27,308 bases of DNA from Acidobacteriota bacterium (GTDB taxonomy: Bacteria; Acidobacteriota; Terriglobia; UBA7540), in assembly GCA_003224665.1 (NCBI GenBank), contig QHZM01000006.1, forward strand, positions 1 through 27,308, given 5' to 3'. The notes beneath the pieces were generated by a model. It ran no database searches, was not told the origin of the DNA, and worked only from the letters and a program-made list of their open reading frames with translations. Both the position numbers and the translations under genes were made by a program. Below, piece by piece: positions 1 to 21,426 of the stretch (position 1 is its first letter; each line of letters opens with the position of its first letter).

Positions 1-102
1 ACTTCGGACTGGGAGTGGGCGCTCGGCGCCGAAGCCGGCTCGTCCGGTTGCCCGACGTCGGGTCAATGCCGCACGGATGCATTCATCGTCGAACTAAAAT
101 AA
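1..102 (+). CDS. 3' end of a secreted-protein gene, identical over these 33 aa to the C-terminus of 2705..5158 (5'-truncated by window edge)
   Basis: Frame 1 reads TSDWEWALGAEAGSSGCPTSGQCRTDAFIVELK-TAA (stop 100-102), the same nucleotides as 5057..5158. Not in the ORF track because it has no start codon in the window. Confidence 0.85.
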   Translation, partial: TSDWEWALGAEAGSSGCPTSGQCRTDAFIVELK

Positions 103-180
103 GGCTGGCTGGAAACAATCCCCCCGCGCCCGCCGGGTGCAGCTTGAGGCTGCGGCAAGCCTCGCATCCCTCCGCTCAGC
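1..180 (+). repeat. Direct repeat copy 1 (at least 180 bp; runs off the window edge)
   Basis: 179/180 identical to 5057..5236; the single difference is T145 versus C5201. Identity stops abruptly after CCGCTCAGC. Confidence 0.97.
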
Positions 181-433
181 TCAGCCATGCAGTCACTTTG
201 CATGGGCATGCGAATACGCCTGGGCTCCGCGGGCTGATCCGGCCAGTGCTCAAGGATGAGCCCGAGGCGAAAGCCGCCAGCACCTGAAGCTAAGTCTGCA
301 TTCGTCCTATCCCCGTCCCTCAGACTAACCAACACTTTATCACCGCCCCTTATGCCCTTTCGGATGGCGATTTGGGCTCTGACCATCCACCGGGAGGATG
401 TTCTGCGGAGCTCAACTGTGCCAACGTGCGTTT

Positions 434-1153
434 CTACGGCAAGTTACTAAACAACATGATGAGATCCGTGCGGCTTTGAACCTTGAACTTGGCCAGAAGC
501 TTGGAAACGTAGAACTTCGCCGTACTTTCTGAGATTTTCAGGTCGTAGGCAATCTCACGATTCGATCGGTTTAATTTGAGTAGTTCGAGAACCGTCCGTT
601 CGCGATGGGTAATGTTGGGGACTGTTTTGACCAATTGTTTGTTCGCAATCGCGCCCAAGTAGCTGGCGAGCAAGTTGCGCGGTGCCCAGCAGCCGCCCTC
701 GGCAACTCTGGACACGGCACGGGAAATGTAGCGATGCGCCTGGTCATGGGTCAGCAAACCTGTAACGCCGATTCTAAAGAGCGGAAATGCCGATTCCGCG
801 CTTAGCTTCGCACCTACCACAATTTGTCGAGACTTCGGAAAGCCAGCTCGGATTTCTGCGACCAGAAGCTGAATCGCCTCGGTGATGGCCAGAGTATCCA
901 CAATGAAAACCTGGACAACTGGCAGGTCCAGCTTTTCAAGATCAAAGGCCAGCGAAGTGTCAAGCTGTCGCGCTTCTATACGAAAGCCCGAGGCAGACAA
1001 CAGCTTTTGGTAATCCTCCAGGACTAAAGGGTGGGTATAAAGAAGACATACCGTCCCGAGCGGAGCTGCGGTCTTGCTTTGATGCACTTTTGCGATAGTA
1101 TTGATCCGCATTACGGATCTTCGGTTTCTCGAATTTTTCTGTAGTTGCCCCAT
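434..1153 (-). CDS. LuxR-family (NarL/CsgD/VpsT-like) transcriptional regulator with atypical receiver domain
   Basis: C-terminal LuxR HTH ITHRERTVLELLKLNRSNREIAYDLKISESTAKFYVSKLLAKFKVQSRTDL. N-terminal receiver-like region (LLYTHPLVLE, VFIVDT). Alternative start ATG at 1111. Confidence 0.88.
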   Translation of the reverse strand: MGQLQKNSRNRRSVMRINTIAKVHQSKTAAPLGTVCLLYTHPLVLEDYQKLLSASGFRIEARQLDTSLAFDLEKLDLPVVQVFIVDTLAITEAIQLLVAEIRAGFPKSRQIVVGAKLSAESAFPLFRIGVTGLLTHDQAHRYISRAVSRVAEGGCWAPRNLLASYLGAIANKQLVKTVPNITHRERTVLELLKLNRSNREIAYDLKISESTAKFYVSKLLAKFKVQSRTDLIMLFSNLP

Positions 1154-1574
1154 GGACAGGCCTGCGCAGGTTCTGAGGAGTTTCTCTGGTTCGAAAGGGG
1201 CGGTGACCTACCCCATTACTGTTGCCACTTGCAAGGAAAAGTGTGTACTTCCGGGCCCCGCAAAGGCGCGAGGCGAACTCCGCGCGGCGGCAAATTCCGC
1301 CGACGTTTGATGGCCCAGCAAATGGTGTCGCCGCCGCTCGTCTTACTGCCTACTCCAAATCCCATTCTTGTTGTGGGCGACAGCCGGGCTGCGAAGCCAG
1401 CGCGTGTTCAATCATTCCTCCCCCAGCTACCCGTTGAAGGTTTCCATGTACGCGTTCCGCCTTGGCCGTCCAGGCCGGTGCGCCCCAAGCGGCTGCCGCG
1501 AAGTAGTAGCACGAAGCAACCAAGTTAAGTGTCCTCATTAACGTCTTCTCACCAACCGCTATTTACGCGATGTG

Positions 1575-1736
1575 CGCTGGCCCTCAGAGGTGAACTCCAA
1601 AGCGAGTTACCCTGTTCAGGGGCCGCTCAGCGTTCAAATCGTAGAGGGGCGTGTTCGCGGTCTGCCCGCAGAGCACCAAGGGCTAGGCGCAGAAATGCCA
1701 CATCTTGTCCATCAGTCATTTAGCGCCGCACGCTAA
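1575..1736. other. Cluster of three predicted stem-loops in the intergenic region (possible sRNA or structured leader)
   Basis: Imperfect ~21-bp hairpin 1575-1632; GTGTTC-GCGG/CCGC-A-GAGCAC hairpin 1651-1676; TTAGCG/CGCTAA hairpin 1720-1736. No RNA family recognised. Confidence 0.3.
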
Positions 1737-1765
1737 TCGCCAAAGGGATTATCAGACGCTGCTGC

Positions 1766-1784
1766 GATAATGGCATTTATTATC
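1766..1784. promoter_or_regulatory. Fur-box-like 19-bp palindrome
   Basis: GATAATGGCATTTATTATC matches 15/19 positions of the classical Fur consensus GATAATGATAATCATTATC, with perfect GATAAT/ATTATC arms. Confidence 0.45.
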
Positions 1785-2704
1785 AATAAGTTAGGAGGGA
1801 ATTGGGGGTCGGTAGTAATCCCCGGAGATACTTTTGAAGGGTAGTTCTTGCACCCTCCCGTTACACTTTGACATGGCGGGCATCGGTGCCTCGACTGATT
1901 ATTCAATTCCTGAACTCGTAGACCTTGCCCCGTTTTACGTACCCATAGTAAGGAAACTTCTGCCTTCTTCGGTGCCCCTACGTGAGCGGCCCACCATTTT
2001 TTGAGCCACTGGGAGAGCAGGTTACGCGGTTCAGAGAAACCGCGTCATCACCCACTCGTTTCAGACGATCAAAAACTTGTTAGATCGCGCGCCCTAACCG
2101 GTCCAGCCCAGGTCCAGGACCGACTCCGGACAAACGAACGCAGCCCACATGGCGGAAGGATTCAGGGAAAAGGACACTTCATCCGCAGGACTGTTCATCA
2201 AGATTTTGTCGGCATTCTTTCTACAAAAGCCGTACTTCCTCACCGCTTTCGAAACCAACGAGCAGGTTAATGGGGTTCGCAATTAGGTTCATTTCCGGGA
2301 ATCACCCACTTGCACTTAAGACTAGAAGAATCACTTTCCCACCGAATTTAGATGCTCCTTTGTACAGGTTTACACCTGTTCTGAAAGCTAGTCTCAGTTC
2401 TATCCCGAATTAGCCATGTAGCCAATTGTTTGCTCCTTCTGCCTGGCCCTAACCTGGGATGGAAAGAAAGGCGGGCCGCATGAAATCCGTTTTATCGCTT
2501 TCTCAAGCGGTCGAAAGTGATACGGCACACGCGTTTCAATTCAACTTGCCCGCCTTTCCATCACGCGCACGAAACACGCCCGAGTACTCGGCAGAGAGCG
2601 GGGATGAATTCCCCAACGTGCAAGCCGATCCAATAGCTGCCCCTCCGCCCCAAACCTGCCCGCGTGCTTAAGCGTGTCGAATCTCTCAGAGGAGGTTTGC
2701 CAGA

Positions 2705-5158
2705 TTGCATGCCTCACGTCGGATATTGTTTACAGCAACTTTACCCTTTGCCGCCTTTACCGTACTTACAGTAACCATCATCTCCAGCGCAACATGGAGC
2801 CTTGTCGGGGTTTCTCCGAATTCGGGTCCTTTGACAGGCGGAACAGTAGTCAATATTTCAGGTAGTGGTTTTCAAAAAGCTACGGGAGTCTCCTTCGGGG
2901 GAGTTAACGCCAGTCGGGTGACTGCGCTGAACGCCACACGACTGCAAGCAGTCACCCCCGCCCATGCAGCAGGGGCAGTCGACGTCGTGGTAACCTATCG
3001 TGACAGCCAGTCGGCTGGGTTGCCCGCAGGATTTACCTACAATCCCCCGCCGACGGTCAGCAGTGCCACGCCTAACTCCGGGCCCACGGCTGGAGGAATG
3101 GCTGTGACTATTGCGGGAACGAGTTTCCAGACTGGAGCGAAGGTTGCGTTCGGAGGAACACTTTCAACCGCAGTCTTGGTCACCAGTGGAACCAAGTTAC
3201 AAGTCTTGACGCCAACACATGCGGCAGGCACCGTCAATGTAGTCGTTGCCAATCCCGACGGGCAGAGTGCCTCGCTGACGGGTGGCTACACCTACATTTC
3301 CATGCCGACGATCAGCAGCGCCTCGCCCAACTCGGGTCCTGTAGGAGGCGGGACCACGGTGACCATTTCAGGTCTTAGTTTCCAGAGTGGGGCAACAGTG
3401 ACCTTTGGCGGAACCAGCGCCAGCCAAGTGACCTTCGTGAGTGCCACCCAACTTCAAGCTCTTACACCTACACACGCAGCTGGCACAGCGAACGTGGTGG
3501 TGACGAACCCCAACGGTCAATCTGGCTCCTTATCGGGAGGCTTCACCTACAATCTCCCGCCGAAGGTCAGCAGTGTGTCGCCTAACTCCGGGTCCACGGC
3601 TGGAGGAACGGCCGTGAATATTGCAGGCACGGGCTTCCAGAGCGGCTCTGGAGTGTCATTCGGGAGTGTCGCCGCCAAGTCCGTCGCTTTCGCGAGCTCT
3701 TCACTCCTTCTGGCCACCACGCCGGCCGAATCAGCCGCAGTTGTGGACGTCACCGTCAAGAACCCGGATGGCCAGATGTCGAGTCTGCCCGCCGCCTTCA
3801 CCTTCAGTCCCGGAACAGGAGGGCCCCCGACCACTTACACCAGTCGAAGTGACCGAAACCGCCAGCTAGAGTCCGCTTTGTCGCCGCCAGCGGTCAACAC
3901 GGTCGTCAACGATCCTGCTTTCAGCTCCCGGATGGTGCGGGTAACTGACCAGAACACCGGGACACCCTTCGGCAGCAACTTCACGAACCACTCCTTCGAA
4001 ACCACTTCCTCAGCCGAGCAGAACACCTGGAATACCAATTCCACCCGCTTCTACGTCGAGATGGACACGGGACGGACATTACCCTTTGCCTTTGATCCCG
4101 CCACGATGGCGGTGACCCGGATTAACATCTCCTCCAATCCGCCGGGCTGGTTGCCCCTGAATAACGGCGCGGCCTTCAGCTATTCGGACCCCGATTTGAT
4201 CTACGGAACGGCCCAGCAGAACGTCATTTTAAAATTCAATTTTGCGACGAACACCCTCTCCACCGTCATTAACACGACCCAATGCGGCGTCACCGGCCTG
4301 CAGCCCGGCACTCACACGGGAGATATCTCCGTCAATTCCACGGATACCCGCTTTTTGGCCTATGAGGGAGGGACCATTCAGGACACCGACATGTTCGCCG
4401 TGGTGTACGACACGGCCCTCGGCTGCCGCTGGTACAACACCCAAACCGGGCAGATTGGGGGATGGGGGGTGCCGACCGGAGCCGCGACGACAACGCAGAC
4501 CTTTCCGATGCACAACGCTCGCCTCTCCAGGGCCGGCGATTGGGTTCGCCTGGTGAATCCCGGAGGCTCAGTTGAGGCCTATTGGGATGTTGCGACTTTG
4601 AACGTCTCGGTGTGCTCCAGCGCCTCGGCACCGTATTGCGGCGGACACCAAGTGCTCGGTTACAGCAACCTGGTCAACCAACCGGGAACGATTGACGCCA
4701 TGAACATCGCCATCAGGCCCTTGACCAACATTAATTCCTCGACCGGACTGATTGTTCCTCTGCCGACGCCGACGGAATTTGTGCTGGATGGTCACTGGTC
4801 ATGGAATAACGTCGACCCCAACGACAGCGTACCGGTTTGTGGCTCGACTTACCGGAATGTGACCCCGGTGCTCGAAATCGGCCGCGCGTGGGACCGGGAA
4901 GTCATCTGTATCCGGACCGACGGCGTCCAATCCGAGGTTTGGCGGTTTGCTCATAACCGGGCCTCGGGGACCGCAAACCAGAACGCAGGTCCGGGCTCGA
5001 ACTTCTTTGCCACGCCTCGCGGCAACGTGTCCCAGGACGGCAGGTTTTACATGTTCACTTCGGACTGGGAGTGGGCGCTCGGCGCCGAAGCCGGCTCGTC
5101 CGGTTGCCCGACGTCGGGTCAATGCCGCACGGATGCATTCATCGTCGAACTAAAATAA
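2705..5158 (+). CDS. Secreted protein: signal peptide, four IPT/TIG domains and an uncharacterised ~440-aa C-terminal (probably beta-propeller) domain
   Basis: TTG start 9 nt after GGAGG (2691-2695). Hydrophobic N-terminus MHASRRILFTATLPFAAFTVLTVTIISSA. Four repeats of the SPNSGxxxGGTxVxIxGxxF...TPxHAAGxVxVxVxNPxGQ type. The C-terminal domain is a clear paralogue of 5457..6857. Confidence 0.9.
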   Translation: MHASRRILFTATLPFAAFTVLTVTIISSATWSLVGVSPNSGPLTGGTVVNISGSGFQKATGVSFGGVNASRVTALNATRLQAVTPAHAAGAVDVVVTYRDSQSAGLPAGFTYNPPPTVSSATPNSGPTAGGMAVTIAGTSFQTGAKVAFGGTLSTAVLVTSGTKLQVLTPTHAAGTVNVVVANPDGQSASLTGGYTYISMPTISSASPNSGPVGGGTTVTISGLSFQSGATVTFGGTSASQVTFVSATQLQALTPTHAAGTANVVVTNPNGQSGSLSGGFTYNLPPKVSSVSPNSGSTAGGTAVNIAGTGFQSGSGVSFGSVAAKSVAFASSSLLLATTPAESAAVVDVTVKNPDGQMSSLPAAFTFSPGTGGPPTTYTSRSDRNRQLESALSPPAVNTVVNDPAFSSRMVRVTDQNTGTPFGSNFTNHSFETTSSAEQNTWNTNSTRFYVEMDTGRTLPFAFDPATMAVTRINISSNPPGWLPLNNGAAFSYSDPDLIYGTAQQNVILKFNFATNTLSTVINTTQCGVTGLQPGTHTGDISVNSTDTRFLAYEGGTIQDTDMFAVVYDTALGCRWYNTQTGQIGGWGVPTGAATTTQTFPMHNARLSRAGDWVRLVNPGGSVEAYWDVATLNVSVCSSASAPYCGGHQVLGYSNLVNQPGTIDAMNIAIRPLTNINSSTGLIVPLPTPTEFVLDGHWSWNNVDPNDSVPVCGSTYRNVTPVLEIGRAWDREVICIRTDGVQSEVWRFAHNRASGTANQNAGPGSNFFATPRGNVSQDGRFYMFTSDWEWALGAEAGSSGCPTSGQCRTDAFIVELK
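2792..3810 (+). repeat. Four tandem ~85-aa IPT/TIG (Ig-like) protein repeats
   Basis: Repeats begin near SLVGVSPNSG, PTVSSATPNSG, PTISSASPNSG and PKVSSVSPNSG; each ends in F/Y-T-Y/F. Boundaries approximate. Confidence 0.88.
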
Positions 5159-5236
5159 GGCTGGCTGGAAACAATCCCCCCGCGCCCGCCGGGTGCAGCT
5201 CGAGGCTGCGGCAAGCCTCGCATCCCTCCGCTCAGC
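5057..5236 (+). repeat. Direct repeat copy 2 (last 34 codons of the IPT gene plus 78 nt of 3' flank)
   Basis: 179/180 identical to 1..180. Contains the hairpin CGAGGCT-GCGGCA-AGCCTCG (5201-5220), which has no U-tract. Confidence 0.97.
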
Positions 5237-5456
5237 GGAAGCCGGCCTGTTCGTCCCCTCGACCCCCCTTAAGCCCCGAATCCCCGGAATTCTTGCATTG
5301 ATCAGGGGCATAAAGGAAACGCCTCGGGCTATCATCCCAGCATATAATTGACGAGGACGTGCCGCTGGGGAGCTTTCCATAATGGCCGCGCGGCAACAGC
5401 CTAATTTCCAACAGTTCTGAGCGTTGTTTGATACTTGGGACTTGGGGTGAAAACTT

Positions 5457-6857
5457 ATGAAGAGGTCTCAGAAGCTGCTCGCTCGGTTTGCGGGCGCCGC
5501 CGCAGTTCTGGGCTCCCTTGTCGGTCCGAGTTTCGGGCAATCCAAAGAATCGGCGGCCCAGTGTGGTCCGCCTGTTTATTGTGCCCCCAGCGACAGAGTT
5601 TTGCGGAAGGAAAGTCCGCTTTCAATCGGCGATGCCGGTTCGGTGTTTGACGATCCAGATTTCGGTTCGCGCATCGTCCGCGTCACCGACGCGAACACCG
5701 GGACTCAGCTGGGCGGCGGTTTTCCCGGAGTCTCATTCGCCACGGATTCCTCATCGGAGCAGAACACCTGGAACAAGAGTGCGACAAGGTTTTACGCCGT
5801 GACGGAGGGCGGAAGGGCTGTTCTGTTTGGCTTTGATCCGGAATCCAAAAACTCATGGCTTGTACGGATATCGGGAGGGGGATGGCTGCCCCTCCGGCCG
5901 GGGGCGTCGTTCAGCTTCGTTGACCCTGACGTTATTTACGGGAGCCCGGCCTCAGGGGATTCGGCGGTCGCTCGTTACCGATTATCAACGCGCAAAACTT
6001 CGACCGTCTTCGATGCGAGGAGGTGTGTACCGCACTTCGGGCGCGTCACGACGCTGGGGGACATCTCCGTGAGTTCCAACGACCAGCAATTCGCCACGTA
6101 CGCCGGCGGCCCAATTCAGGACGAGCACATGTTGGTCATGGTTTTCGATTCAACCCAAGGGTGTCGATGGTATAACACCCAAACTGGGCAAGTTGGCGGA
6201 GACTGGGGCCCGGCCGGTGCGGCCACGACGCCGCAAAAGTATCTTATCCACAACGCTCGTCTCTCCAAGCGGGGCGATTTTGTTCGAATTACCGGCCCTG
6301 GTGGGGGGGTCGAGGCTTACTGGCAGGTCGCAACGCTCAACGTAACGACTTGTTCCTCGCGGGCTGCGCCGTATTGCGGTGGCCATAAAGTCCTGGGCTA
6401 TGCTCACATGGTCAATCAGCCGGGGACGCTGGACGACATGAATGTCGTGATGAGGCCCTTGACCAGCATCAAGGCAAGCTTCCAGCTCATCAATCCTCTG
6501 CTCACCCCGACCCAATGGACCCTGGATTCGCACTGGTCTTGGAACAACGACGATGCCAACGACAGCTTCCCTGTTTGCGGTTCCACCTATCGCGAAGTGC
6601 CGCCTTTTACTCGGATTGAAAGGGCGTGGGACCGGGAAGTGATCTGTATCCGCACGGACGGGACTCAATCGCAGGTTTGGCGGTTTGCCCATCATCGTTC
6701 GACCGCCGCCAATGGATTTTGGTCCACTCCGCGAGGCAACGTTTCGCAGGACGGCAAGTTTTACATGTTCACTTCAGATTGGGAAAACACGCTCGGATTC
6801 CTGAACGGCTCAAGGACCCAGCACCGCACCGACGTGTTTGTCGTGGAGCTGAAGTGA
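5457..6857 (+). CDS. Secreted uncharacterised protein, paralogue of the C-terminal domain of 2705..5158, without IPT domains
   Basis: Signal-peptide-like MKRSQKLLARFAGAAAVLGSLVGPSFGQ. Shares RVTDxNTG, SEQNTWN, GCRWYNTQTGQ, HNARLS, PYCGGH, HWSWNN, AWDREVICIRTDG, TPRGNVSQDG and YMFTSDWE with the upstream gene. Confidence 0.9.
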   Translation: MKRSQKLLARFAGAAAVLGSLVGPSFGQSKESAAQCGPPVYCAPSDRVLRKESPLSIGDAGSVFDDPDFGSRIVRVTDANTGTQLGGGFPGVSFATDSSSEQNTWNKSATRFYAVTEGGRAVLFGFDPESKNSWLVRISGGGWLPLRPGASFSFVDPDVIYGSPASGDSAVARYRLSTRKTSTVFDARRCVPHFGRVTTLGDISVSSNDQQFATYAGGPIQDEHMLVMVFDSTQGCRWYNTQTGQVGGDWGPAGAATTPQKYLIHNARLSKRGDFVRITGPGGGVEAYWQVATLNVTTCSSRAAPYCGGHKVLGYAHMVNQPGTLDDMNVVMRPLTSIKASFQLINPLLTPTQWTLDSHWSWNNDDANDSFPVCGSTYREVPPFTRIERAWDREVICIRTDGTQSQVWRFAHHRSTAANGFWSTPRGNVSQDGKFYMFTSDWENTLGFLNGSRTQHRTDVFVVELK

Positions 6858-8297
6858 GCGAGAGCGCCCCACCGCACCAGCCGGTGAACCTCAAGATTCA
6901 AGCCGTCAAGAATGTCGGGTCCAGTTGGTTGGCGCTTGCCGTCACGGTCGCCGTCGGTTTCTTTCTGGCTCCCTTCATCCTGCATAAGCTGGGCGACGAG
7001 GCTTACGGACTTTGGATTCTGGTCTTTTCCTTGACCGGTTATTACAGCCTTTTCGACCTCGGCATCCGCTCCACAATTGTCCGCTACGTATCAAAACTGA
7101 CGACGACGGGCGACGACGACCAGCTGGCGCGTATCATTAACACAAGCTTTTTCAGCTACAGCGTGCTCGCGGTTTCCCTCCTGGTGGTGACGGCCATCGG
7201 ATCCCGGGTTATCGATCTGCTGTTCCACGTCCCGCCGGCCTTTCTCAACGCTGCCCCGCTCCTGTTTCTGATCGTCGGTTCGTCAATCGCTCTCAATTTT
7301 CCCCTCGGCTTGTTCGCCGGCATTCTCGAGGGACTTCAAAAGTTCTACTGGCTGAACCTGACACAAATCATTTCGATCTTGCTTCGCGCCTGGCTCATTG
7401 TCGTGGCCCTGAAGCGCGGCGGCGGGTTGGTGACCATCACGCTTATTACGGTTTCCTTCCCCCTGCTCAGCTCCGTCGCCCACATCCTGATGGTACGTCG
7501 AAGTCTGCCCCTCCCGTTCGGCGCGAGGTTCGTTGACCGGAGAAGTTTTCGCCAGCTCATCAGCTACGGCGCAGCGACCTTCATGATCATCGTTGCCGCC
7601 AGGCTCCGCTTCCAGACCGATGCACTCGTGATCGGCATGTTCCTTTCTTCTTCGGCGATCACGCTCTTTTCGATCGGGTCGAAGCTGGTCGATTACCCGT
7701 ATTTTCCCGATTAGCGCGGCGCTCGTCATCCTGGGCAGGTCCCTGATTGAGATTTGGGTTGGGCCGAAGTACCTCGCCAGCTATGCGATCCTGCTGATCT
7801 TGGTCCTATCCACAACTCTTTACTCCGCGCAGGCAACTTCGACTAAGATCCTCTTCGGGATCAGCCGCCATCGAATCCTCGCGGCCGTCGTGCTGGTCGA
7901 GGGAGCGGCAAACTTGGTCCTCAGCATTGTGCTGGTGCGCTACCTCGGCATCATCGGCGTCGCTCTGGGCACCGCGATCCCTTTGACGTGCACGAGCATT
8001 TTTTTCCTGCCGCTCCACCTGTGCCGCATCCTGAAGATTCCCTTGGGGACCTTCCTGAGGCAAGCTTATCTCCTGCCCCTGGCACTCTGCACCCCCTTTG
8101 CGGTCGCGCTGCTCTCCATGCGGCACCTGTTTCACGCGCGCACCTACTTCCAGTTCCTGCTGCAGCTCGGTCCGGGGGCACTCGTGTACGGCGTCGGGTT
8201 ACTGTGGCTGTTTTTTACCAGAGAAGCGATGGGGATAAAAATGTGGACACGTTTTACTCAGTTCCTGCACGAATCCGCCGGGTGGCGGAATAGATGA
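6854..8297 (+). pseudogene. Wzx-like oligosaccharide flippase disrupted by an internal out-of-frame deletion at ~7697-7700
   Basis: GTG 6854 overlaps the TGA of the upstream gene (alternative GTG 6884). Typical multi-TM flippase sequence runs to KLVDY, then stops at 7714. The C-terminal half resumes in another frame at 7701 (IFPISAALVILGRSLIEIWVGPKY...) and ends at 8297. Confidence 0.82.
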
Positions 8298-8320: not shown

Positions 8321-9370
8321 TCATCCGGCATCAGGGCCTTTCTTTCCCATGCGCGGCCGCCCTTCCGTCGGCGATTCCGGAGCGGGGAATATGCTGAAAA
8401 CAACATTGACTCCGACTTTTTCCAAATTGACCTCATCGAGGCACTTTTGGGCGGACAAGTCGTAAAGGGCGATATGGGTCGGTTTTTCTCCCTCCTTAAA
8501 GGCATGCCTCACCCAATTGAGATTCTCTTTGAACTTCGTTTTGCGAACCCGAGTAAACCCCACCCACACCCTTGATTCATCCAGAACCAGGAGGCCGCGG
8601 CACCAGCCGAGCAGCGCCCTTTCCGGATTGTCGATCGTCTTCAGGTCCACCGCTTCGACGGTCCGGAGGGTGTTCTTTTCCACGACGACAATATTTCCGT
8701 CGACGGTCGTAAAGTAAATTCTGTCTCCGATCACGTGTCCGTCGTGCGGCTTTTGAACGCCGATTTCAATCCGCTGGCCTGGATGCGTCAGGCACACAGC
8801 ATCCTTCTGATCAAATCTCGTGACCCAGATCTCGTTTTCGATTTGAAAGACGAAATTGGGATGAGAGTGGTGCGGTTTGGTGGTTTCGACTTTGCGGTAA
8901 TCGATACTCTTGGAAAAGCGCGACCAGGGGTCCTCGCCCAGGACGTTCCACTCGCGACATAACTTTCCATCCCGAGTCAGCTCCACGACCATATCCAAAC
9001 CCGTGTTGGCCACCAGCAGGTGGCCTTCGGGTGTGGGCGTCACGTGATGGAGGTCGTTAAAGCAGGGCAAAGAAATATAGCCGGTCCGTATAAACTCGGG
9101 AACCTCGTAGATCAAAACCTCCGTCGAAGTGCAGGCATACAGCGTGTTGCCCTGCAGCGTTCCGCACTTGAAGACTACGGACGAGTTACCACTTGCGCGC
9201 GCTTCGAGAGGAGTGATGTGCTCGGCGCAGACTTCGGACGCCTTGGTTTCAATATCCACACGGACCACCAACGCCCGATCATAGAGGCGCCACTCTTCCT
9301 CGTCCTTGAGAAACCTTACCTTTTCACGGGCGCCAAGTACGTATAAATTCCTCACGAAAGCCCTCGACAT
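8321..9370 (-). CDS. Uncharacterised beta-propeller-like protein with conserved-looking His motifs (arylsulfotransferase/DUF4915-like by motif pattern)
   Basis: 349-aa ORF starting 1 nt after the upstream stop. Beta-rich repeats; motifs NDLHHV, HSHPN...WVTR, KPHDG and WCRGL. No signal peptide. Confidence 0.6.
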   Translation of the reverse strand: MSRAFVRNLYVLGAREKVRFLKDEEEWRLYDRALVVRVDIETKASEVCAEHITPLEARASGNSSVVFKCGTLQGNTLYACTSTEVLIYEVPEFIRTGYISLPCFNDLHHVTPTPEGHLLVANTGLDMVVELTRDGKLCREWNVLGEDPWSRFSKSIDYRKVETTKPHHSHPNFVFQIENEIWVTRFDQKDAVCLTHPGQRIEIGVQKPHDGHVIGDRIYFTTVDGNIVVVEKNTLRTVEAVDLKTIDNPERALLGWCRGLLVLDESRVWVGFTRVRKTKFKENLNWVRHAFKEGEKPTHIALYDLSAQKCLDEVNLEKVGVNVVFSIFPAPESPTEGRPRMGKKGPDAG

Positions 9371-9371
9371 T

Positions 9372-10508
9372 TCATCGCGGGGGAGTGATCAGACGAAGCC
9401 GATAGTCCCGGTATTCAACGGGGGTTCCGTCACGCCCGTCGCAAGCGGCGAGGGCGATGTTCATCATCTCACGTGCCGTGACAAAGTGGACGTGATAATC
9501 CCGCCCGCCTCGAGAATCTTCGATTAATTGGCGGACGAATTCGAGGGAGGGAGGACCCAGCAAGCATGCCTCATCCCGGGGGTCCATTCCGTGAGCATGC
9601 AGCTTGATGAAGATCCATTGGGGACGACCGCGGACCGTAACCGCTGCCTGTTTCCAGAGCTGAACTCGCCGGAGCGTGGGCGGCTGGTCTCTCGTCAGTT
9701 CGCCATTTTCGATGTGCGGAGCGAGCCAGCCTTGCTTCCGCCGCACGATCGTCAGAGCGAGCGGCCCTTGGATGATTACGGGAAAGAGCTGGGGCACACG
9801 CCCGCAACGCAAGTCGCGGCCTCGCCGATGAGGCGCCCGCTGATCGAGCGGAAGCGAGCATTCGTACATCGAATTGATCTTTCCTACCTGAGTGATGTCC
9901 GGCGCCGAAGGGAGCGTCAAGTCTGCGTAGCACCCGGTATCAGAAAGGATTTGCATCTCATTATCGACTCCACAATAGCGTCCCCGACCCGAATTTGCCA
10001 AAGCCCAATTCCCATGAACAAAGGCATACCGCGGCGGCCCCGCGCCATCCAGCCTGGAAAGGCATCCCTGTCCTGCCAACCGGTCTCTGAACTCGAGGAG
10101 GACTCGCCTCGTATTCTCGGCGGTATCAGGCCCGTCCAGCCCATGATGAAGGTGAACCTCAATTTCGCCCCACCCTTCTTTGCAGTGGTCCGCGAGGCGT
10201 TCGATCAGCACTCTGTCGTATTGTTCGGCTGGATAAAAGTAAGTATGGCGGAAAGGGAACCCGTCGGCGTCGCGCCAGGGGTCGAAAATCTTCGGATAAT
10301 CGCGACACCACCGCTCGATCCGCCGCTCCTGCTCATTGTGGCTCGCTCGCGCAGGACCCGCCCCCGGAATGACGGCAGGCTCAAAATGATCGGCCAGGCC
10401 TATGATCAAATGGACCGGCCCGTGGCGAGCCTGGCGCCTCGTCAGCCGCTGCCATAGGAAGGCCGGCAACCAGCGACAATTGCTTCGAATTTCCCTCCAT
10501 GACATCAT
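9372..10508 (-). CDS. Uncharacterised protein with polysaccharide-deacetylase-like (beta/alpha barrel, metal-binding) motifs
   Basis: Motifs DHFEP, EIEVHLHH, FVHGNWAL, DLTLPS and KLHAHG. ATG at 10508/10505 preferred over the TTG at 10550. Confidence 0.6.
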   Translation of the reverse strand: MMSWREIRSNCRWLPAFLWQRLTRRQARHGPVHLIIGLADHFEPAVIPGAGPARASHNEQERRIERWCRDYPKIFDPWRDADGFPFRHTYFYPAEQYDRVLIERLADHCKEGWGEIEVHLHHGLDGPDTAENTRRVLLEFRDRLAGQGCLSRLDGAGPPRYAFVHGNWALANSGRGRYCGVDNEMQILSDTGCYADLTLPSAPDITQVGKINSMYECSLPLDQRAPHRRGRDLRCGRVPQLFPVIIQGPLALTIVRRKQGWLAPHIENGELTRDQPPTLRRVQLWKQAAVTVRGRPQWIFIKLHAHGMDPRDEACLLGPPSLEFVRQLIEDSRGGRDYHVHFVTAREMMNIALAACDGRDGTPVEYRDYRLRLITPPR

Positions 10509-10673
10509 GGGTCGATCATCCCGCCTGGGGCTTGCGAACGGCGCCGTCAACGATAGGCATGCCCCGCGTATTCAAGTCAACTGACAATCCCTCTGGCACT
10601 TGAGTTTCCCCTGGCACGAAAACATTGGATCGCGCGCTTTGCGCGACCGGACACGTCAGCAGCTCAATTCGAG

Positions 10674-12638
10674 TCAATCTGAGCTCAGCACTGGCGCCCC
10701 CGAAGGATGGGACAACCGCCCGGCAACCTGGTCCGTTGACTCCACGTCGAGAAACACGCGATGCCAAATTTCCAGATTCAGGAGCCTCCAAACACGGTCG
10801 TGGTGATCTCGAAAGCGGGTCCGGTGTTCGGAAAATAGGCGTCGCAAGGCGTCTTTCTTAAAGATTCCGCGCCCGAGGCTCCGAGGCTCGAGTAAGAATC
10901 TCTCGATAAGATCCAACTGAGTTCCGGCCAGCCAGGTCCGCCACGGTGTGGGGAAGCCCATCTTCCGCCGGTAAATGATCCCTTTCGGCAGCAGGTCGCG
11001 TACGGCCGACTTCAGGATGGACTTCCCCGCCAGGCCACGGGTCTGAAAATGCGGCGGGATGCCGGCGGCGAACTCCACCAATCGGTGATCCAGAAACGGG
11101 ACGCGGCTTTCAATCGAGGCTGCCATGCTCATGTTGTCTTGCTTCATCAGCAATTCCACCAAGTAAGTCTTGATATCGGTATAGAGCAGGCGACTGATCA
11201 GTTCCCCGGAAGATTTCTCCCAGAATGCGAGCACGTTACGATAGGCCGTCCCAGGATCCGGGCGGAATTCGTCGGCCAGCAGATTGATCTGCTCCGGTTC
11301 CGAGAATGCCGAATAGAAATTGTCAAAATAGAATGAAACCCAGGAGTTCCCGCCACGAGCCAGAAAGGTGTGTTGCAACTTGCGCCGCAATCCGGCAGAC
11401 AAGAATCTCGAATCAGCCACCAGCCGGCGCACCCGACGGCGCAGGCCCGGCGGGGAAAGCCGACGATACAACCGGTCCGCGCGTGTGTTCCAGAGCGTCC
11501 ACGGATAGCGAGAATATCCGGCTAAAGTTTCGTCGCTGCCCTCGCCCGTCAAGACGACGGTAACGTAGCGCCGTGCAAGCCGAGCCACGAAATACAGCGC
11601 GACGCTCGAAGGCCACGCAATCGGTTCATCTTCGTGCCAGACCAGTTTCGGCAAGGCATTAAAAAATTCCTGGCGGCTTACGCGAACTTCATGATGGGTC
11701 GAACCGAGATGGGCGGCCACTCCCTTGGCATAGGGGAGCTCGCTGTCACAGGCTTCCTCATATCCGACGGAGAACGTTTCAATGGGTCCGCGTCGAATCT
11801 TGGTCATCAGCGCCGCAACCGCACTGGAATCTATGCCCCCGCTGAGGAAAACTCCCAAAGGCACATCACTCATGAGGTGGCTTGCCACCACCTCTTCAAG
11901 CTGGCCGCGATAACTTCTGATGTAGTAACTTTTCGGGTGGCGGGTCGAACTGTCGGCCGGAAGGGGAAGGTCCCAATAGGGTTCGATTCGAACCTCGCCG
12001 CCCTCCTCTAATTCCAGGGTATGCCCGGGCGGGAGCTTGTGGACCCCCGCAAAAAGAGTCTCAGTCCCCGAAAGATAACCGAAGGCAAGATACTCGGATA
12101 TAGCCGCCCGATTCAGTTCTGCTCGGACGCCAGGGTATGCCAGTAAAGCCTTAATCTCAGAACCGAACAGAAAAGTCCCGCCGTTCCGCCAGTAATAGAG
12201 CGGCTTGATCCCCAGCCGGTCTCGCGCAACCAGAAGCCGGCGTTTTCGCGCATCCCAGAGGGCGAAAGCAAACATCCCCCGCAGATGCTGCACGGAGTCC
12301 CGCCCATATTCTTCGTAAAGGTGGACGATCGTTTCCGTATCGCTCCGACTGCGGTATTGATGGCCGCGCTCCTCAAGATTCCCTCGCAGCTCCTCGTGGT
12401 TGTAGATTTCCCCGTTGTAGACCAGCCAGACCGTTCCTTCTTCATTGCTGATCGGCTGTTGTCCTGTACGCAAATCGATTATGCTCAATCTTCGGATTGC
12501 CAGACCGACGTTTCCAGACAGATAAAATCCCGCGTCGTCGGGTCCCCGGTGCACAATCTGCTGGCCCATGGCCTCGAGCCAGCGTCGTTCGACGGGAAGC
12601 TTGCTATCAAAGCTAATTACTCCACAAATGCCGCACAT
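10674..12638 (-). CDS. asnB: Asparagine synthase (glutamine-hydrolysing)-like amidotransferase
   Basis: N-terminal MCGICG (Ntn nucleophile Cys2), HRGPD, RRLSIID, NGEIYN, RDRLGIKPLYY, LSGGIDSS, GEGSDE and ESRVPFLD. Confidence 0.95.
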   Translation of the reverse strand: MCGICGVISFDSKLPVERRWLEAMGQQIVHRGPDDAGFYLSGNVGLAIRRLSIIDLRTGQQPISNEEGTVWLVYNGEIYNHEELRGNLEERGHQYRSRSDTETIVHLYEEYGRDSVQHLRGMFAFALWDARKRRLLVARDRLGIKPLYYWRNGGTFLFGSEIKALLAYPGVRAELNRAAISEYLAFGYLSGTETLFAGVHKLPPGHTLELEEGGEVRIEPYWDLPLPADSSTRHPKSYYIRSYRGQLEEVVASHLMSDVPLGVFLSGGIDSSAVAALMTKIRRGPIETFSVGYEEACDSELPYAKGVAAHLGSTHHEVRVSRQEFFNALPKLVWHEDEPIAWPSSVALYFVARLARRYVTVVLTGEGSDETLAGYSRYPWTLWNTRADRLYRRLSPPGLRRRVRRLVADSRFLSAGLRRKLQHTFLARGGNSWVSFYFDNFYSAFSEPEQINLLADEFRPDPGTAYRNVLAFWEKSSGELISRLLYTDIKTYLVELLMKQDNMSMAASIESRVPFLDHRLVEFAAGIPPHFQTRGLAGKSILKSAVRDLLPKGIIYRRKMGFPTPWRTWLAGTQLDLIERFLLEPRSLGRGIFKKDALRRLFSEHRTRFRDHHDRVWRLLNLEIWHRVFLDVESTDQVAGRLSHPSGAPVLSSD

Positions 12639-12641
12639 GAC

Positions 12642-15020
12642 CTAACCTGTTCTCTCACCTGGTTTATCCCACGCCCTCTCCGATAAAATCATACGGGCAT
12701 GACTCGCTGCATCCTCGGAGACACGTCCCAGGGAGGAATTGTCAGAGGACGAAATCCGCGTCGAGCCTCCCCGATTTGTCCACTCGTAACGCGCGAGCGG
12801 ACGTGCGATTTCGAGCAGACGACGCCCGTCGATATCCACGTAGCTCGCCTCGCAGGATATCCAGTGTTGTCCGCCGCCGGGAGCGATGCCGCAGTACAGA
12901 AATCGTGCATCGCTCGTCCAGGGTCCCAGACTCCAGCGCCGGCCTCCGGCCGCGAAAAAAAAGTAATGGCTCTCTCCTGACACCGCGTACAAGTAGCCGC
13001 GGACAGGCGGGTCGGCGGCGGCATCACCGAGCTGCGTAAGTTCGCCTAAAGTTTCCGATCCACGGAGGTCTTTTGCCAAAGGAAACACCATCACGGCAAG
13101 CTCCCGGGGCATAACAGACTCCACTCTGAACCGCACGACGAGGGCAAATTCCGATTGTCCATAAGACCGGGAGACACGATCCCGGCTTAGTTCCTTGAAC
13201 CATCCATTCCCTTGCACCTGGAGGAATGCCAACCCGGCGTTCTCCTCGTCGCGGAAGACCTCACAATTGGGGCCCACGGAATCAGCAGTAAATCCGGGGG
13301 CCAGGTGCCAGGAAACCGCAAGATCGTGTTTCCCCTTCCCTTCAGCCCGATCTCGCACTATCCAAACCCGCGATTTCAGACTAAAAATCCAGCGACGGTG
13401 CACCACCGGTTCTTGGAGCCGGCAATATCCTGTGTGGCTCCCCTGAAACAGGTCGAAAGATTCGCCGGCGACCCAGTTCTCGATACGAACCTTCGGCAAC
13501 GATTGCCAAGAAAAGGGCCCCGTGGCTTCCGCCTGATCCGCACCATCCACCTGGAGAGTATTGTGAGCGCCCGTACCGCGAAATTGATTGCGTTCCTTTC
13601 GGTCCCACAGATATGAAAACGTCCCGGAGTCAACCAGGCATTCTCGCCCGCCGACCGAAAGTTGAACGCTCAGCGCATCGGCGTGGCCATGACCGGCGGC
13701 CCCTGCGCCCTGCGGTCCCGCATCGATCAGCAGTTGGGAAGGCGATGGTTCCGAACCGGCCATAACACAGATGCCGCTCGGCTCAAACCGGTCGGAGCGA
13801 AGAGGGACAGGCGGGGGGTTCAACAGATCGAACTGCTTCAAACCGTCCGGCCCCAACAGCCAGACCGCCTCCTCGGTCGGACCGGGCGCGGAATCCTTGA
13901 AGTCGCCGCGGCTAAATATTACGGCCCCGATGGCCAGAGGGTCGAGCAGATGCCGGGGACGGTTGCGGCGGGGATCGAACACACGGCCCCCATCATCATC
14001 GCCAAAGCTCGGCACCGCCCCCGTTTGCCCCAGGCCAGCGAGGAGACCAAGCATTTGTTTGAGGGTTTGGTCAAACGACTCAGGTATCTCCGTCCGGTTC
14101 GAGGCAGCGAGGATTCGCGCGTGGAGGAAGAAGTCGAGCGCATAGACGTCGTAATAGAGGGATTGCTCAAAGTGCATACCATCCGCGCGCACCTGGCGTT
14201 GCGCTTCTTGCAGAATGATCTTCCAGCCGAGCTCCCGCCAGCCCTCTCCGGCCGCGAGTTGCGGGCACAAGGTTCCGATGAAGAATAGCCCCACCGCTTC
14301 GCCTAGCAGGTGTGTGTTCGGGGAGAAATATGTGGACAGGAACCACTCGATGTGCCGACCGTTCAGCGCTAAGGCGTTCAACAAGTCAGAGTGAAAGCTT
14401 TTCGGCACGGCTGGCGAATCGCCCAGGAGGCGCCACACCCAAAGCCACGAAAGGCTCCGAAAGGCGACTTCCAGACTGCTGGCCCAATTGATCCCCAAGG
14501 GGTAGGGATTTTTTTCTTGCCAGTGATACCATTGGCGAAACAACTCCGTAGCAAAGCGTTCTTCGCGCGCGAGGCAATATGCCTTGGCCAGCACCACCAG
14601 ATGCTGGTGCCGGTTCAGTTCCCACGTTATCTTCGAGTCCCCAACTTCGTTGAAGTCGAGGAATCCGATTTTATACCAAGGCTTAAGCGGCGCTCGCCTG
14701 CCATTCAGAATGTCGAGATGCCAATCGATTTCCTGGCCGTAGTCCAGGTTTTCATATCCCAGGAGGTCAAAACGATGCTGGCAGATGCGTTCGGCTTGCC
14801 GAACGATTTCATCGACCTCGGCAGGAAATCTTTCGAGCAGCAAATCAATTCTGGGGGCGAGTTCCTCCGGCGCGAAAAAAAAACGTCCTTCCTGAGCCTC
14901 AACCGGCGTGATTTGCTTGTGGCTTCGTTGGACCCCCAGCCGATAGGCTGCCGCGTCATAACGCTTAACGATCGCCTGGACGCTGCGTGTGCGAAGCTCG
15001 TCCCAACTCGGATGGGCCAT
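12642..15020 (-). CDS. Heparinase II/III-family protein (polysaccharide lyase-like)
   Basis: Motifs WELNRHQH, SPNTHLLGEA, DGMHFEQS, GHGHADALS, VDSGT and HNTL. Start most likely ATG 15020 or slightly upstream; the ORF-track extension to 15275 looks non-coding. Confidence 0.85.
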   Translation of the reverse strand: MAHPSWDELRTRSVQAIVKRYDAAAYRLGVQRSHKQITPVEAQEGRFFFAPEELAPRIDLLLERFPAEVDEIVRQAERICQHRFDLLGYENLDYGQEIDWHLDILNGRRAPLKPWYKIGFLDFNEVGDSKITWELNRHQHLVVLAKAYCLAREERFATELFRQWYHWQEKNPYPLGINWASSLEVAFRSLSWLWVWRLLGDSPAVPKSFHSDLLNALALNGRHIEWFLSTYFSPNTHLLGEAVGLFFIGTLCPQLAAGEGWRELGWKIILQEAQRQVRADGMHFEQSLYYDVYALDFFLHARILAASNRTEIPESFDQTLKQMLGLLAGLGQTGAVPSFGDDDGGRVFDPRRNRPRHLLDPLAIGAVIFSRGDFKDSAPGPTEEAVWLLGPDGLKQFDLLNPPPVPLRSDRFEPSGICVMAGSEPSPSQLLIDAGPQGAGAAGHGHADALSVQLSVGGRECLVDSGTFSYLWDRKERNQFRGTGAHNTLQVDGADQAEATGPFSWQSLPKVRIENWVAGESFDLFQGSHTGYCRLQEPVVHRRWIFSLKSRVWIVRDRAEGKGKHDLAVSWHLAPGFTADSVGPNCEVFRDEENAGLAFLQVQGNGWFKELSRDRVSRSYGQSEFALVVRFRVESVMPRELAVMVFPLAKDLRGSETLGELTQLGDAAADPPVRGYLYAVSGESHYFFFAAGGRRWSLGPWTSDARFLYCGIAPGGGQHWISCEASYVDIDGRRLLEIARPLARYEWTNRGGSTRISSSDNSSLGRVSEDAASHARMILSERAWDKPGERTG

Positions 15021-15182
15021 TCGCGCCAGGTATTCTCGCCACCCTCTTTGAGGAGACAAGGCCAAGTGTTGACCTACCAATTGAATGCGACCCCGATAGC
15101 AAGAATTACCGCAATCCTGCGAGAAAGCATCTCTTTCACCCCTTCGGGAATTCTTCGAAGGGACAGGGCGATGATAAAATAG

Positions 15183-15198
15183 TGGCACTTTGTTTGCA
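15183..15198 (+). promoter_or_regulatory. Sigma-54 (-24/-12) promoter candidate
   Basis: TGGCAC-TTTGT-TTGCA, with GG at 15184-85 and GC at 15196-97. It points at an AGGAGG RBS (15382-87) and ATG 15397. Confidence 0.6.
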
Positions 15199-15396
15199 GC
15201 AACCAGTTTTCGCGAATCGAAGCGACTAGGTGAGGAGCCCCTCGTATGCGCCAGCGCAGGCCCGCGAGTGGCCAAGGAAAGACAGCGCGTGGGTGTGTGT
15301 GGTTAAACTTTTTCGAATCCTCCCGAGCTATTGGTCGAGCAACTTTGTGCTGCATCCAAGGACCGCGAACTCAGATTTTCCAGGAGGATCTGTTAA

Positions 15397-15797
15397 ATGT
15401 TAAACATACGGTTCCATGCAAGTCGGTTGCCGAACTCTTGCCGAATCGATCCTGCGTGCGGCTATGAGAGGCCGACTCGCAATTGAATACTGACGGCGCG
15501 ACACGATTCTCCGAAGTCGAGGGAGGCCTCAACGGGATGACCGTTCGCAGTTTCGAGAAATTAATCAAGGCGAGTCCTTTCCAATTCGAGAAGTTCGAGG
15601 CCGTTCCCATTCGGGCGGTAAGGCGACTCCACAACCGGTTTACCCGAGAGCTCTTTACTTCCGTCGTGCGATCGAAGTTGATCAGGAAGCCCTCTCGGGA
15701 TCAAGGGTCTGAGTCATCGGGTGATGCACACTTCCAGCCTCGCCTGAAGACTGCTGCTTCCCAATCCGGCGAAAGTGACCCGGTCCGGAAACCTTAG
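15397..15797 (+). pseudogene. Remnant of a probable class I SAM-dependent methyltransferase
   Basis: Strong RBS and ATG give only a 29-aa frame ending in TGA at 15484-86. A different frame from ~15483 reads TDGATRFSEVEGGLNGMTVRSFEKLIKASPFQFEKFEAVPIR...RELFTSVVRSKL, which I recall as a methyltransferase C-terminus. No SAM-binding motif I remains. Confidence 0.45.
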
Positions 15798-15930
15798 CGC
15801 CGCCCACCGTCACTTTGGAACCCGATTTCAGGCGCGACAGGCCAACGGGCAAGAATCAGCGGGCTGCGCCATATTCCGCCGCACAAGGGTGAAACCGACG
15901 CGTGAGTCCGCTGGCAGGTGAAATACAAGT

Positions 15931-17157
15931 ATGAAGATCCTGTGGGTTAAAGCTGGGGGCCTCATTCCCCTCGATACAGGAGGGAAGATTCGAAGTTACC
16001 ACCTCCTGAAAGAGCTCGCGAACAAGCACGAAGTCACGTTGTTCACCTTCTACCCCGCTCACCCCGATGACCGCCATCACGAACTGGAGCGGGTTTTCAG
16101 CCGCGTCGTGTGCCTGCCGCTTCAGATTCCCGGCCCGGGGAGTTTCGGCGACTACCTGAACTATTTCTGGAACCTCTTCGGTCCATACCCCTATGCGATG
16201 GCGAAATACTACCGTCCCGGTCTGGCGGACGCACTGCGCAAGCTCGTGATGTCCGAGACTTATGAAACCATCGTGTGTGATTTTCTCGTTCCGGCAGGCA
16301 TCATCCCCTGGGACGCGCCTGTCCCCAAAGTCCTCTTCACTCACAACGTCGAAGCGATAATCTGGCAGCGGCATTATCAATGCGCCCGGAATCCCATCTG
16401 GAAATCCGTATACTGGCGGGAATACCGCACCATGAAACGGGTCGAGAGCCACTACCTCGAACGCGCCGATCACGTCTTGACGGTCTCCGAAACCGACCGG
16501 GATTATTTCGCGCGTTTCATCGCCCCCTCGAAGATCACCGTCATCCCGACGGGTGTCGACGCGGATTTTTTCCGCCTCCAGCGGGTTCGAGAGCGTCCCA
16601 ATACTTTGGTTTTTACGGGTTCAATGGATTGGCTGCCTAACGAAGACGCCGTGCTCTACTTTGTCGAGGCGATTTTGCCGCACATTCAACGCCGAATTCC
16701 GGACGCGACGCTGCGGGTCGTGGGCCGCCGTCCGTCGAGCCGGCTGATGGCTCTCGCGGGCAGGAACGATCACGTGGACGTCACCGGCGGAGTTGAGGAC
16801 ATTCGCGCCTACGTCCGCGACGCCTCGGTCTATGTTGTGCCCCTTCGAATCGGAGGCGGTACGCGGTTGAAGATTTTTGAAGCGATGGCGATGGGTAAAG
16901 CGGTCGTCGCAACTTCCGTCGGCGCGGAAGGCCTGCCGGTCGAACATGGCAAGGACATCATTCTGACAGACGACCCGGCAGAGTTCGCGGAGGCCGTTTC
17001 GGCGCTTCTTGCGAATCCCGCAGCACGAGAAAAATTAGGCAAAGCAGCCAGGAGCTTGGTGGAGGAAAAGTATAGCTGGGCGTCTGCAGCCGCCCGCCTC
17101 GAAATGGTCCTCGCAAGAACTGCGAAGAAGAATTCTAGTCGAACAGGTTCCCCTTAA
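15931..17157 (+). CDS. GT4-family glycosyltransferase (EPS-cluster type)
   Basis: GT-B motifs FTGSMDWLPNEDA, VVPLRIGGGTRLKIFEAMAMGKAVVAT and AEGL. Full length and apparently intact. Confidence 0.92.
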   Translation: MKILWVKAGGLIPLDTGGKIRSYHLLKELANKHEVTLFTFYPAHPDDRHHELERVFSRVVCLPLQIPGPGSFGDYLNYFWNLFGPYPYAMAKYYRPGLADALRKLVMSETYETIVCDFLVPAGIIPWDAPVPKVLFTHNVEAIIWQRHYQCARNPIWKSVYWREYRTMKRVESHYLERADHVLTVSETDRDYFARFIAPSKITVIPTGVDADFFRLQRVRERPNTLVFTGSMDWLPNEDAVLYFVEAILPHIQRRIPDATLRVVGRRPSSRLMALAGRNDHVDVTGGVEDIRAYVRDASVYVVPLRIGGGTRLKIFEAMAMGKAVVATSVGAEGLPVEHGKDIILTDDPAEFAEAVSALLANPAAREKLGKAARSLVEEKYSWASAAARLEMVLARTAKKNSSRTGSP

Positions 17158-18254: not shown

Positions 18255-18416
18255 CAATCTTCGACCTCTTTCTTCGTTAAGCCAGTCCGACCCTTCCAGC
18301 CCGCGGAGGAAAAAAGGGAGGCGTTTTTCCATCGGACCGCGACGGCGGAGAAAAGCCAGCGAGCACGCCCCCGAAAAGCGCCCAGGCGGGCTGCTGGTTC
18401 GATGGCAATCCCCAGG

Positions 18417-19223: not shown

Positions 19224-19241
19224 TCGGAAACGAGGTCCCTC

Positions 19242-19664
19242 CTAGACCCACAGCATCCTTGCTCCGGTGGCAAACAAGACGACGCCAAGGACTCGCTTCA
19301 CCCAATAGCTCGGCAACGCCGTGCCCAGTCGGACGACCACCAATGACCCGGGTACAGAACCGGTGAACAAGGGAAATACTAAATCGGGGTCCACTGTGCC
19401 TAACCGAAGGTGGAGAAGGCCCGTGAAGCCGGCGAGCGCAAAAGCGTGCATGATATCCGTGCCTACCAGAGTGGCCGGGGCAGATGGCACGAACAGCAGG
19501 AGAAGCACAAAGATGACGCTGCCCGAGCCTACGGCAATCGTGGCGTGCACGCGGAGAAAAAAGATCAAGATAGGAAGTAAAAGTACGCCACCGCCCAATC
19601 CGGCCTGACCCACGAAAGTTCCTACGAACATCCCGACAGTAATTTTCAGGATCAATAGAGACAT
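19242..19664 (-). pseudogene. TSUP (TauE/SafE) sulfite-exporter-family gene with a large in-frame internal deletion
   Basis: 140 aa versus the usual ~250. The N-terminal GxGGGxLxxP...AVGS is joined directly to second-half motifs GSGSVI...LVGTDIMHA. Confidence 0.75.
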
Positions 19665-19718
19665 GGATTGTTTATGGCAGTGTGCCCCCTTTCCCGAGGG
19701 CGAGGGACACCGCTCAAT

Positions 19719-21335: not shown

Positions 21336-21426
21336 AGTTTCGAATCCTATTCCTGGGTCGAGTCGGTTGTTGAACCCCGGCAAACCTGCCGGAGCGTCGG
21401 CAGTCGAATTTCGCGACGCCACATTT

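Follow-up and report, generated by a model that had tools for sequence, protein, structure and literature searches.

A candidate family of exported PL22-like propeller proteins in exopolysaccharide gene clusters of soil Terriglobia

What is the role of exported proteins that share one large domain and whose genes lie next to the flippase gene of a polysaccharide cluster? The question is raised by the 27,308-nucleotide (nt) stretch of acidobacterial DNA analysed here ("the window"), which is the whole of contig QHZM01000006.1 and the longest contig of a metagenome bin that is 67% complete (assembly GCA_003224665.1, Acidobacteriota, UBA7540). Mis-binning of the contig was considered and no sign of it was seen: its GC content is 58.1% against a bin mean of 60.4%, and its tetranucleotide distance ranks 63 of 114. 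An initial annotation, made from the sequence alone, had proposed that three genes in its first 7 kb end in the same domain, probably a propeller, and form a new system coupled to polysaccharide export. The elements concerned are the following.

1..102, + strand: third propeller gene, truncated at its 5' side where the contig begins; last 33 codons and stop, matching the C-terminus of 2705..5158 exactly.
2705..5158, + strand: stalked propeller gene (817 amino acids, aa), with a TTG start 9 nt 3' of GAGGAGG.
2801..3814, + strand: stalk of four IPT/TIG domains (PF01833, E 1.2e-54, four stretches; NF058597, E 2e-38).
3815..5155, + strand: propeller domain of the stalked gene, by similarity to the 466-aa protein (family profile E 1e-167).
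5457..6857, + strand: unstalked propeller gene (466 aa); Sec signal peptide at about residues 1-28 and, in the AlphaFold2 model, seven blades at residues 59-466.

The three genes do end in one domain. The 33 residues before the stop at position 102 match the last 33 of the 817-aa protein exactly, and the two full propeller domains share 56-59% identity (56% over 448 residues, E 1e-170). All motifs listed earlier (SEQNTWN, GDISV, HNARLS, CGGH, DxHWSWNN, WDRE, RFAHxR, TPRGNVSQDG) are present in both full proteins. So are six cysteines (C190, C236, C299, C307, C374 and C397; residues of the family are numbered throughout in the 466-aa protein), which are invariant in 46 close homologues and unconserved across the wider family of 133 representatives (<= 50% identity), and which are therefore a subfamily feature. 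Both complete proteins had been assigned signal peptides. This holds for the 466-aa protein, which has a standard Sec signal; the 817-aa protein consists of a long hydrophobic N-terminus, a stalk of four IPT/TIG domains that passes the PF01833 cut-off in repeats, and a C-terminal domain of ~445 aa, and its hydrophobic N-terminus may be an uncleaved membrane anchor. One propeller form would then be held on the four-TIG stalk behind a membrane anchor, and the other would be free and soluble, in the periplasm or outside the cell.

The propeller domain has no sequence match in Pfam, NCBIfam or PDB by phmmer and hmmsearch, and literature searches turned up no description of the family or of its cluster. 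The AlphaFold2 model of the 466-aa protein, obtained with a 46-sequence alignment, consists of seven four-stranded blades (residues 59-466) with an N-terminal strand closing the propeller (predicted local distance difference test score 85.5, predicted template modelling score 0.85), in line with the fold proposed at the outset. Its top Foldseek matches are two structures of oligogalacturonate lyases of polysaccharide lyase family 22 (PL22), 3PE7 and 3C5M, on which the predicted fold can be superposed; among the lyase families initially named, PL22 was specifically the right guess. ESM Atlas ranks structures in the same order, both by language-model features and by shape, and AlphaFold DB clusters contribute only uncharacterised relatives. 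The nearest fold is that of an enzyme, clearly ahead of binding propellers. The family has no confident match to a characterised family and a remote relationship only to PL22, and its description as uncharacterised is upheld.

The relationship to PL22 was also examined at the profile level. We built a PL22 profile from annotated oligogalacturonate lyase genes (Rahnella, Klebsiella and a haloarchaeon; plasmid records) together with PL22-like proteins of the window's phylum, and a profile of the new family from the 133-member alignment. The two profiles align collinearly over their full length in hhalign (84.9% probability, E 6.5e-6, 344 columns), whereas a reversed control gave 0.2% and five block-shuffled controls gave 0.3-32%. 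The last-blade section of this alignment is the most reliable, and identity to PL22 sequences is 12-13%. The full-length signal emerged only with diverse profiles; comparisons with single PL22-like proteins or with a shallow PL22 alignment recovered the N-terminal strand only, with 1-15% probability. The family is thus probably a distant relative of PL22 in which the inner-strand histidines have been kept and the PL22 Mn site has been lost.

Several polar and aromatic residues are nearly invariant among the 133 representatives: R75 and E394 (133/133 each), W289 and R409 (131 each), S153 (130), H359 (129), H265 and D459 (127 each), H310 (126), Q221 and R457 (124 each), H412 (122) and R333 (119). 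DSSP mapping places H265, H310 and H359 on the innermost strand of blades 4, 5 and 6, and the model puts Q221, E394, R457, D459 and H412 at strand ends or in loops, on the face with the D-to-A and B-to-C loops. As modelled, this arrangement fits what would be expected of a single site where the central channel opens, which is the place of the PL22 active site. In 3PE7 (YeOGL) we take His287, Gln350, His353 and His355 to be the Mn2+ site and His242, grouped with Arg217, to be the catalytic base, roles that Abbott et al. 2010 reportedly assigned; the 3PE7 sequence holds all six residues at these positions. The hhalign alignment pairs His242 with H310, at low local confidence in these blades, and the Mn ligand His287 with H359. 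A register pairing H265 with His242 was rejected, as it is collinear with neither terminus and not with the hhalign alignment.

PL22-family proteins of the window's own phylum (L007:832-2268, L009:931-2202 and relatives) score above the Pfam cut-off. They retain Arg217, His242 and His287 and carry Glu-Pro-Asn in place of YeOGL His353-Pro-His355; since His353 and His355 are replaced in them, the Mn site appears to vary within the wider superfamily. This subfamily has at least 8,000 matches, annotated as oligogalacturonide lyase. Canonical PL22 was also sampled in the phylum of G151, a metagenome-assembled genome labelled Verrucomicrobiia, and none was found at E <= 1e-20; that sample is like the one from the window's phylum.

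To place the family in its genomic context, we searched 80 homologous loci with 10-kb flanks (mostly Terriglobia) with the window proteins and with neighbours identified by Pfam. Within 10 kb of the propeller gene, 54 loci encode a polysaccharide deacetylase, 50 a Wzx flippase of either of two types, 48 a sulfotransferase and 46 an AsnB-type amidotransferase. A heparinase II/III-like protein and a family 4 glycosyltransferase (GT4) are each found in 36 loci, followed by UDP-glucose dehydrogenase (29), CysQ (26), Sat-CysC (25) and a Wzy-like protein (18). By chance, a gene present in one or two copies in a 5-Mb genome is expected in such a 20-kb span in less than 1% of cases. The 80 loci are related and the counts are not independent; gene order nonetheless differs widely, and the association with polysaccharide genes extends to bins labelled Verrucomicrobiia and 'Bacillati bacterium ANGP1' (L051, L075). 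Homologues thus lie in polysaccharide loci far more often than by chance, as had been suggested. The family gene lies 0-55 nt upstream of wzx in 17 of the 80 loci. The proposed deployment in stalked and unstalked forms recurs as well: two or more family copies occur in 20 loci, nine of which pair a short with a long gene, and the long forms carry immunoglobulin (Ig)-like stalks of several kinds.

The window itself holds the following further features.

434..1153, - strand: regulator of the LuxR/GerE family, between propeller copies (PF00196, E 5e-15).
6854..7699, + strand: 5' part of the wzx flippase gene (PF01943; Wzx residues 1-271 map to 6884-7696).
7700..8297, + strand: 3' part of wzx in another frame (Wzx residues 316-506 map to 7707-8279).
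8321..27308: rest of the polysaccharide cluster, with two unannotated conserved genes, two AsnB genes, a heparinase II/III-like gene, four GT4 genes, a CysQ-like gene, Sat-CysC and a Wzy-like gene.

With PF01943 (Wzx), PF04932 (Wzy_C) and four GT4 proteins, the window cluster combines a flippase, a polymerase-like protein and glycosyltransferases; genes for chain-length control and outer-membrane export were not seen on the contig. Homologues of the genes in 8321..27308 flank the propeller family in other genomes, and other small contigs of the window's bin carry a UDP-glucose dehydrogenase, a sulfotransferase and a deacetylase. From the neighbouring genes taken together, we predict that the product of such clusters is a uronic-acid-containing, N-deacetylated, sulfated exopolysaccharide resembling a glycosaminoglycan. 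The designation "new system" overstates the case for what is one accessory gene family within a Wzx/Wzy cluster.

Other genes recur in these loci. The genes at 8321-9370, 9372-10550 and 21367-22164 have no Pfam or NCBIfam match; their homologues occur in 18, 24 and 26 loci of the 80, respectively, that of 8321-9370 often lying directly upstream of a propeller gene. The 80 loci (L019-L098) and a further locus, P0063, also contain two or three sulfotransferase genes and methyltransferase, FkbH-like and GNAT genes. The gene set of these soil Terriglobia resembles that of heparan-sulfate-type biosynthesis.

The family is large and modular. A word-indexed search returned more than 746 matches to the propeller domain, and a profile search of 1.84 billion representatives identified 2,345 clusters at E <= 1e-3, 515 of them at E <= 1e-30. 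By a crude test, a signal-like N-terminus is present in 78 of 96 single-domain members and a lipobox-like motif in 18 of 96. Modules fused to the propeller in 47 multidomain relatives include Ig-like domains and the carbohydrate-binding modules (CBMs) CBM6 (4), CBM35 (4) and CBM4_9 (3), with discoidin domains in further relatives. Stalk types vary, from TIG in the window to He_PIG, Big_7, fn3 and PKD elsewhere. Fusion to a CBM usually marks a domain as catalytic and carbohydrate-active.

What, then, do the propellers do? We give even chances to the reading that they are extracytoplasmic uronate-directed lyases, or related processing enzymes, acting on the polymer of their own cluster. Fold, remote homology, export signals, synteny and CBM fusions are observed, and from these we infer the substrate, the chemistry and the physiological role. 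In a cluster of the Wzx/Wzy type, the propellers would act on the polymer after its repeat units have been flipped. The C5 proton of a uronate would be abstracted at the centre of the propeller, where His310 would be the counterpart of the PL22 base His242, surrounded by His265, His359, His412, Glu394 and Arg409; the polymer would be cleaved, as by a lyase, or modified in a related way, and so be trimmed, released or sized. Cleavage of the polymer made by an enzyme's own exopolysaccharide operon is known from AlgL, PslG, PelA and BcsZ, which are periplasmic or secreted. The predicted location and genomic logic of the window family are like theirs, whereas the folds are unrelated, and its role is drawn from context alone. 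The ulvan lyases of PL24 and PL25, together with PL42 and glycoside hydrolase (GH) family 145, are also seven-bladed propellers acting on uronate-containing anionic glycans through His, Tyr and Arg residues of the central face, and PL24 and PL25 use no catalytic metal; none of these families is among the 50 best structural matches of the window family, and no sequence relationship to them was detected.

Several results weigh against this reading. The Pfam model of PL22, PF14583, is matched by 0 of 46 members even at E 10, and by none of the genes of the window or its genome. In the well-aligned last blade, the Mn ligands Gln350, His353 and His355 correspond to F421, T424 and R426, and Arg217 aligns to A287 in the middle blades, where the hhalign register is of low confidence. 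Because these three Mn ligands and, by this alignment, Arg217 are replaced, the PL22 mechanism cannot apply unchanged and the family does not consist of canonical PL22 enzymes. Arg426 was considered as a universal substitute for the metal and rejected, being kept in only 73 of the 133 representatives. Moreover, the window proteins are exported, unlike PL22 enzymes, which work on oligomers in the cytoplasm; adhesins just as typically have Ig-like stalks and multiple copies; and distant CBM-bearing relatives lie outside polysaccharide loci in the two neighbourhoods that could be read.

The likeness to PL22 (YeOGL, 3PE7; VPA0088, 3C5M; PF14583) is one of the seven-bladed fold and, probably, of remote descent. 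Beyond the substitutions just described, the window family has conserved residues of its own (E394, R409, H412, W289 and R333, with the six cysteines in the window subfamily), and it is found in biosynthetic clusters, whereas PL22 belongs to a pectin-catabolic context. By profile and by metal site the sequences do not qualify as PL22 members, and we assign them to a new family within the PL22-like propeller superfamily.

Much of this evidence also bears on a purely binding role, in which a non-catalytic lectin, adhesin or matrix protein would tether the sulfated or carboxylated polymer in its stalked form and cross-link it in its free form. The various Ig-like stalks of the family, the frequency of several copies per locus, the loss of the PL22 metal site and the common use of propellers as binding scaffolds suit such a role, which we regard as credible but unlikely: a His/Glu/Arg set near-invariant in 133 representatives is more usual for catalysis than for the binding of variable glycans, fusion to CBMs suggests that the propeller itself is not the binding module, and the closest fold is an enzyme rather than a binding propeller. 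The invariant His cluster with Glu and Arg could also serve some other chemistry on the exported polymer, that of a GH145-like hydrolase, an esterase or deacetylase, a sulfatase, or an AssT-like sulfotransferase that uses a catalytic His and is independent of 3'-phosphoadenosine-5'-phosphosulfate (PAPS). Sulfotransferase, deacetylase and PAPS genes are immediate neighbours, and close homologues have disulfide-type Cys pairs. However, the sequences match no PF05935, sulfatase, esterase or GH model, such folds are absent among the 50 best solved structures (AssT-type arylsulfate sulfotransferase included, which has no Pfam match either), and cytoplasmic sulfotransferases and a deacetylase are already among the products of the cluster; we give this explanation a small chance.

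A position directly upstream of wzx, in the 17 loci mentioned above and in three more cases where the genes overlap by 4 nt, raises the idea of a periplasmic scaffold, comparable to TolB or BamB, that binds proteins of the export machinery and is a partner of Wzx/Wzy rather than of the glycan. Periplasmic TolB/PD40 propellers (PF07676) have in common with the window family their location and the blade motif S-x-D-G ... F-x-S, and PD40 is matched weakly by 8 of 46 members (best E 0.0045), with no match in the window's own propeller proteins. Yet wzx is not adjacent in most loci, copy number varies, relatives are fused to CBMs, some members lie outside any polysaccharide locus, and the invariant polar residues are patterned like an active site; we consider a scaffold very improbable.

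The uronate-directed enzyme can be framed more boldly, as a new family of polysaccharide lyases or uronate C5-epimerases that arose from the PL22 fold, rebuilt the site without Mn ligands and became dedicated to a previously unrecognised heparan-sulfate-like sulfated exopolysaccharide of abundant soil bacteria. The marks of that polymer stand in the same clusters (UDP-glucose dehydrogenase, N-deacetylase, several sulfotransferases, PAPS synthesis, heparinase II/III-like protein); this version is tentative, and we would sooner doubt it than accept it. The family is common in soil Terriglobia and numbers thousands of sequence clusters, yet it has neither a database model nor a characterised member. 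The evidence ranks it among PL22-like carbohydrate-active propellers, with a catalytic centre that differs from theirs, and ties it to clusters that are apparently for sulfated glycosaminoglycan-like polymers. If its members are enzymes, they would found a new CAZy family and provide a means to cut or edit sulfated polysaccharides of bacteria, as well as a marker of such clusters in metagenomes. Soil exopolysaccharides play a role in aggregation and carbon retention, and sulfated bacterial polymers are wanted as replacements for animal glycosaminoglycans.

The truncated gene at the contig start lies in a direct repeat. Copy 1 (1..180, + strand) comprises the gene end and 78 nt downstream, and copy 2 is 5057-5236; 179 of 180 bases are identical, the sole mismatch being position 145, and beyond base 180 the copies diverge completely. 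The remainder of the third gene is absent from the other contigs of the bin. We mapped contigs of four public soil runs onto the window (Logan contigs, runs labelled X1, X2, X3 and X5). A single contig of run X5 connects 3917-5056 directly to 1-517. In runs X2, X3 and X5 the propeller body is covered about twice as deeply as the sequence on either side of it. This junction and this depth show that the third copy is real: it exists upstream of the contig, nearly matches the stalked gene across the propeller domain at the least, and precedes the LuxR-type regulator at 434-1153. Contigs of runs X3 and X5 match the window from 3625 on; 5' of this point they differ and still translate into a TIG-like motif. 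Either this divergent sequence belongs to the 5' part of the third copy, or the number of TIG repeats varies.

From position 3823 on, the window is matched at 95-97% identity by two metagenome contigs, L105 and L106. In their orthologue of the stalked gene, a lipoprotein-like N-terminus takes the place of the TIG stalk, and the propeller shares 88.6% protein identity. From the sequence comparison, we conclude that the TIG stalk was gained or lost recently, through exchange of the whole 5' module upstream of 3823. In L105, homology (from L105:6844) begins at window position 3823, exactly the start of the propeller domain, and the genes upstream differ (amine oxidase, GT4).

At the junction with wzx, the initial annotation had noted an overlap of the propeller-gene stop with the flippase start. 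The overlap exists: an in-frame GTG with GGAG ahead of it lies at 6854 and runs into the TGA at 6855-6857, and an identical 4-nt overlap is present in the gene calls of L105/L106 and of the unrelated P0063 locus. The N-termini of homologous Wzx proteins, however, align from a second GTG at 6884, so that either GTG may be the start. With either start the propeller gene and wzx are likely co-transcribed, and translational coupling is plausible. A scan for consensus promoters and terminators gave nothing beyond shuffled sequence. Relative to L105/L106, the window is without 122 nt at 7699/7700, a loss that splits wzx into two frames. Contigs of runs X1, X3 and X5 carry these 122 nt; the lesion is therefore not a property of the population, and a faulty assembly or a minority variant is more likely than a fixed pseudogene.

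The named records of the family are nearly all from Terriglobia (Acidobacteriota) bins, and its distribution is patchy. None of 150 genomes sampled from the window's own phylum carries it at E <= 1e-10, and 5 of 24 genomes of the window's taxonomic family have divergent members, often in tandem, with an insertion of ~150 residues. The window genes are nearer to the Terriglobia type (40-46% identity) than to these members of their own relatives, which hints at lateral transfer. In two of the relatives (G275:C241:43397-52485 and G295:C74:1232-5327) the divergent members form tandem arrays of two or three, with the insertion falling between profile positions 243 and 252. A gene with a GerE domain, as in the regulator at 434..1153, is also found at the edge of the P0063 cluster.

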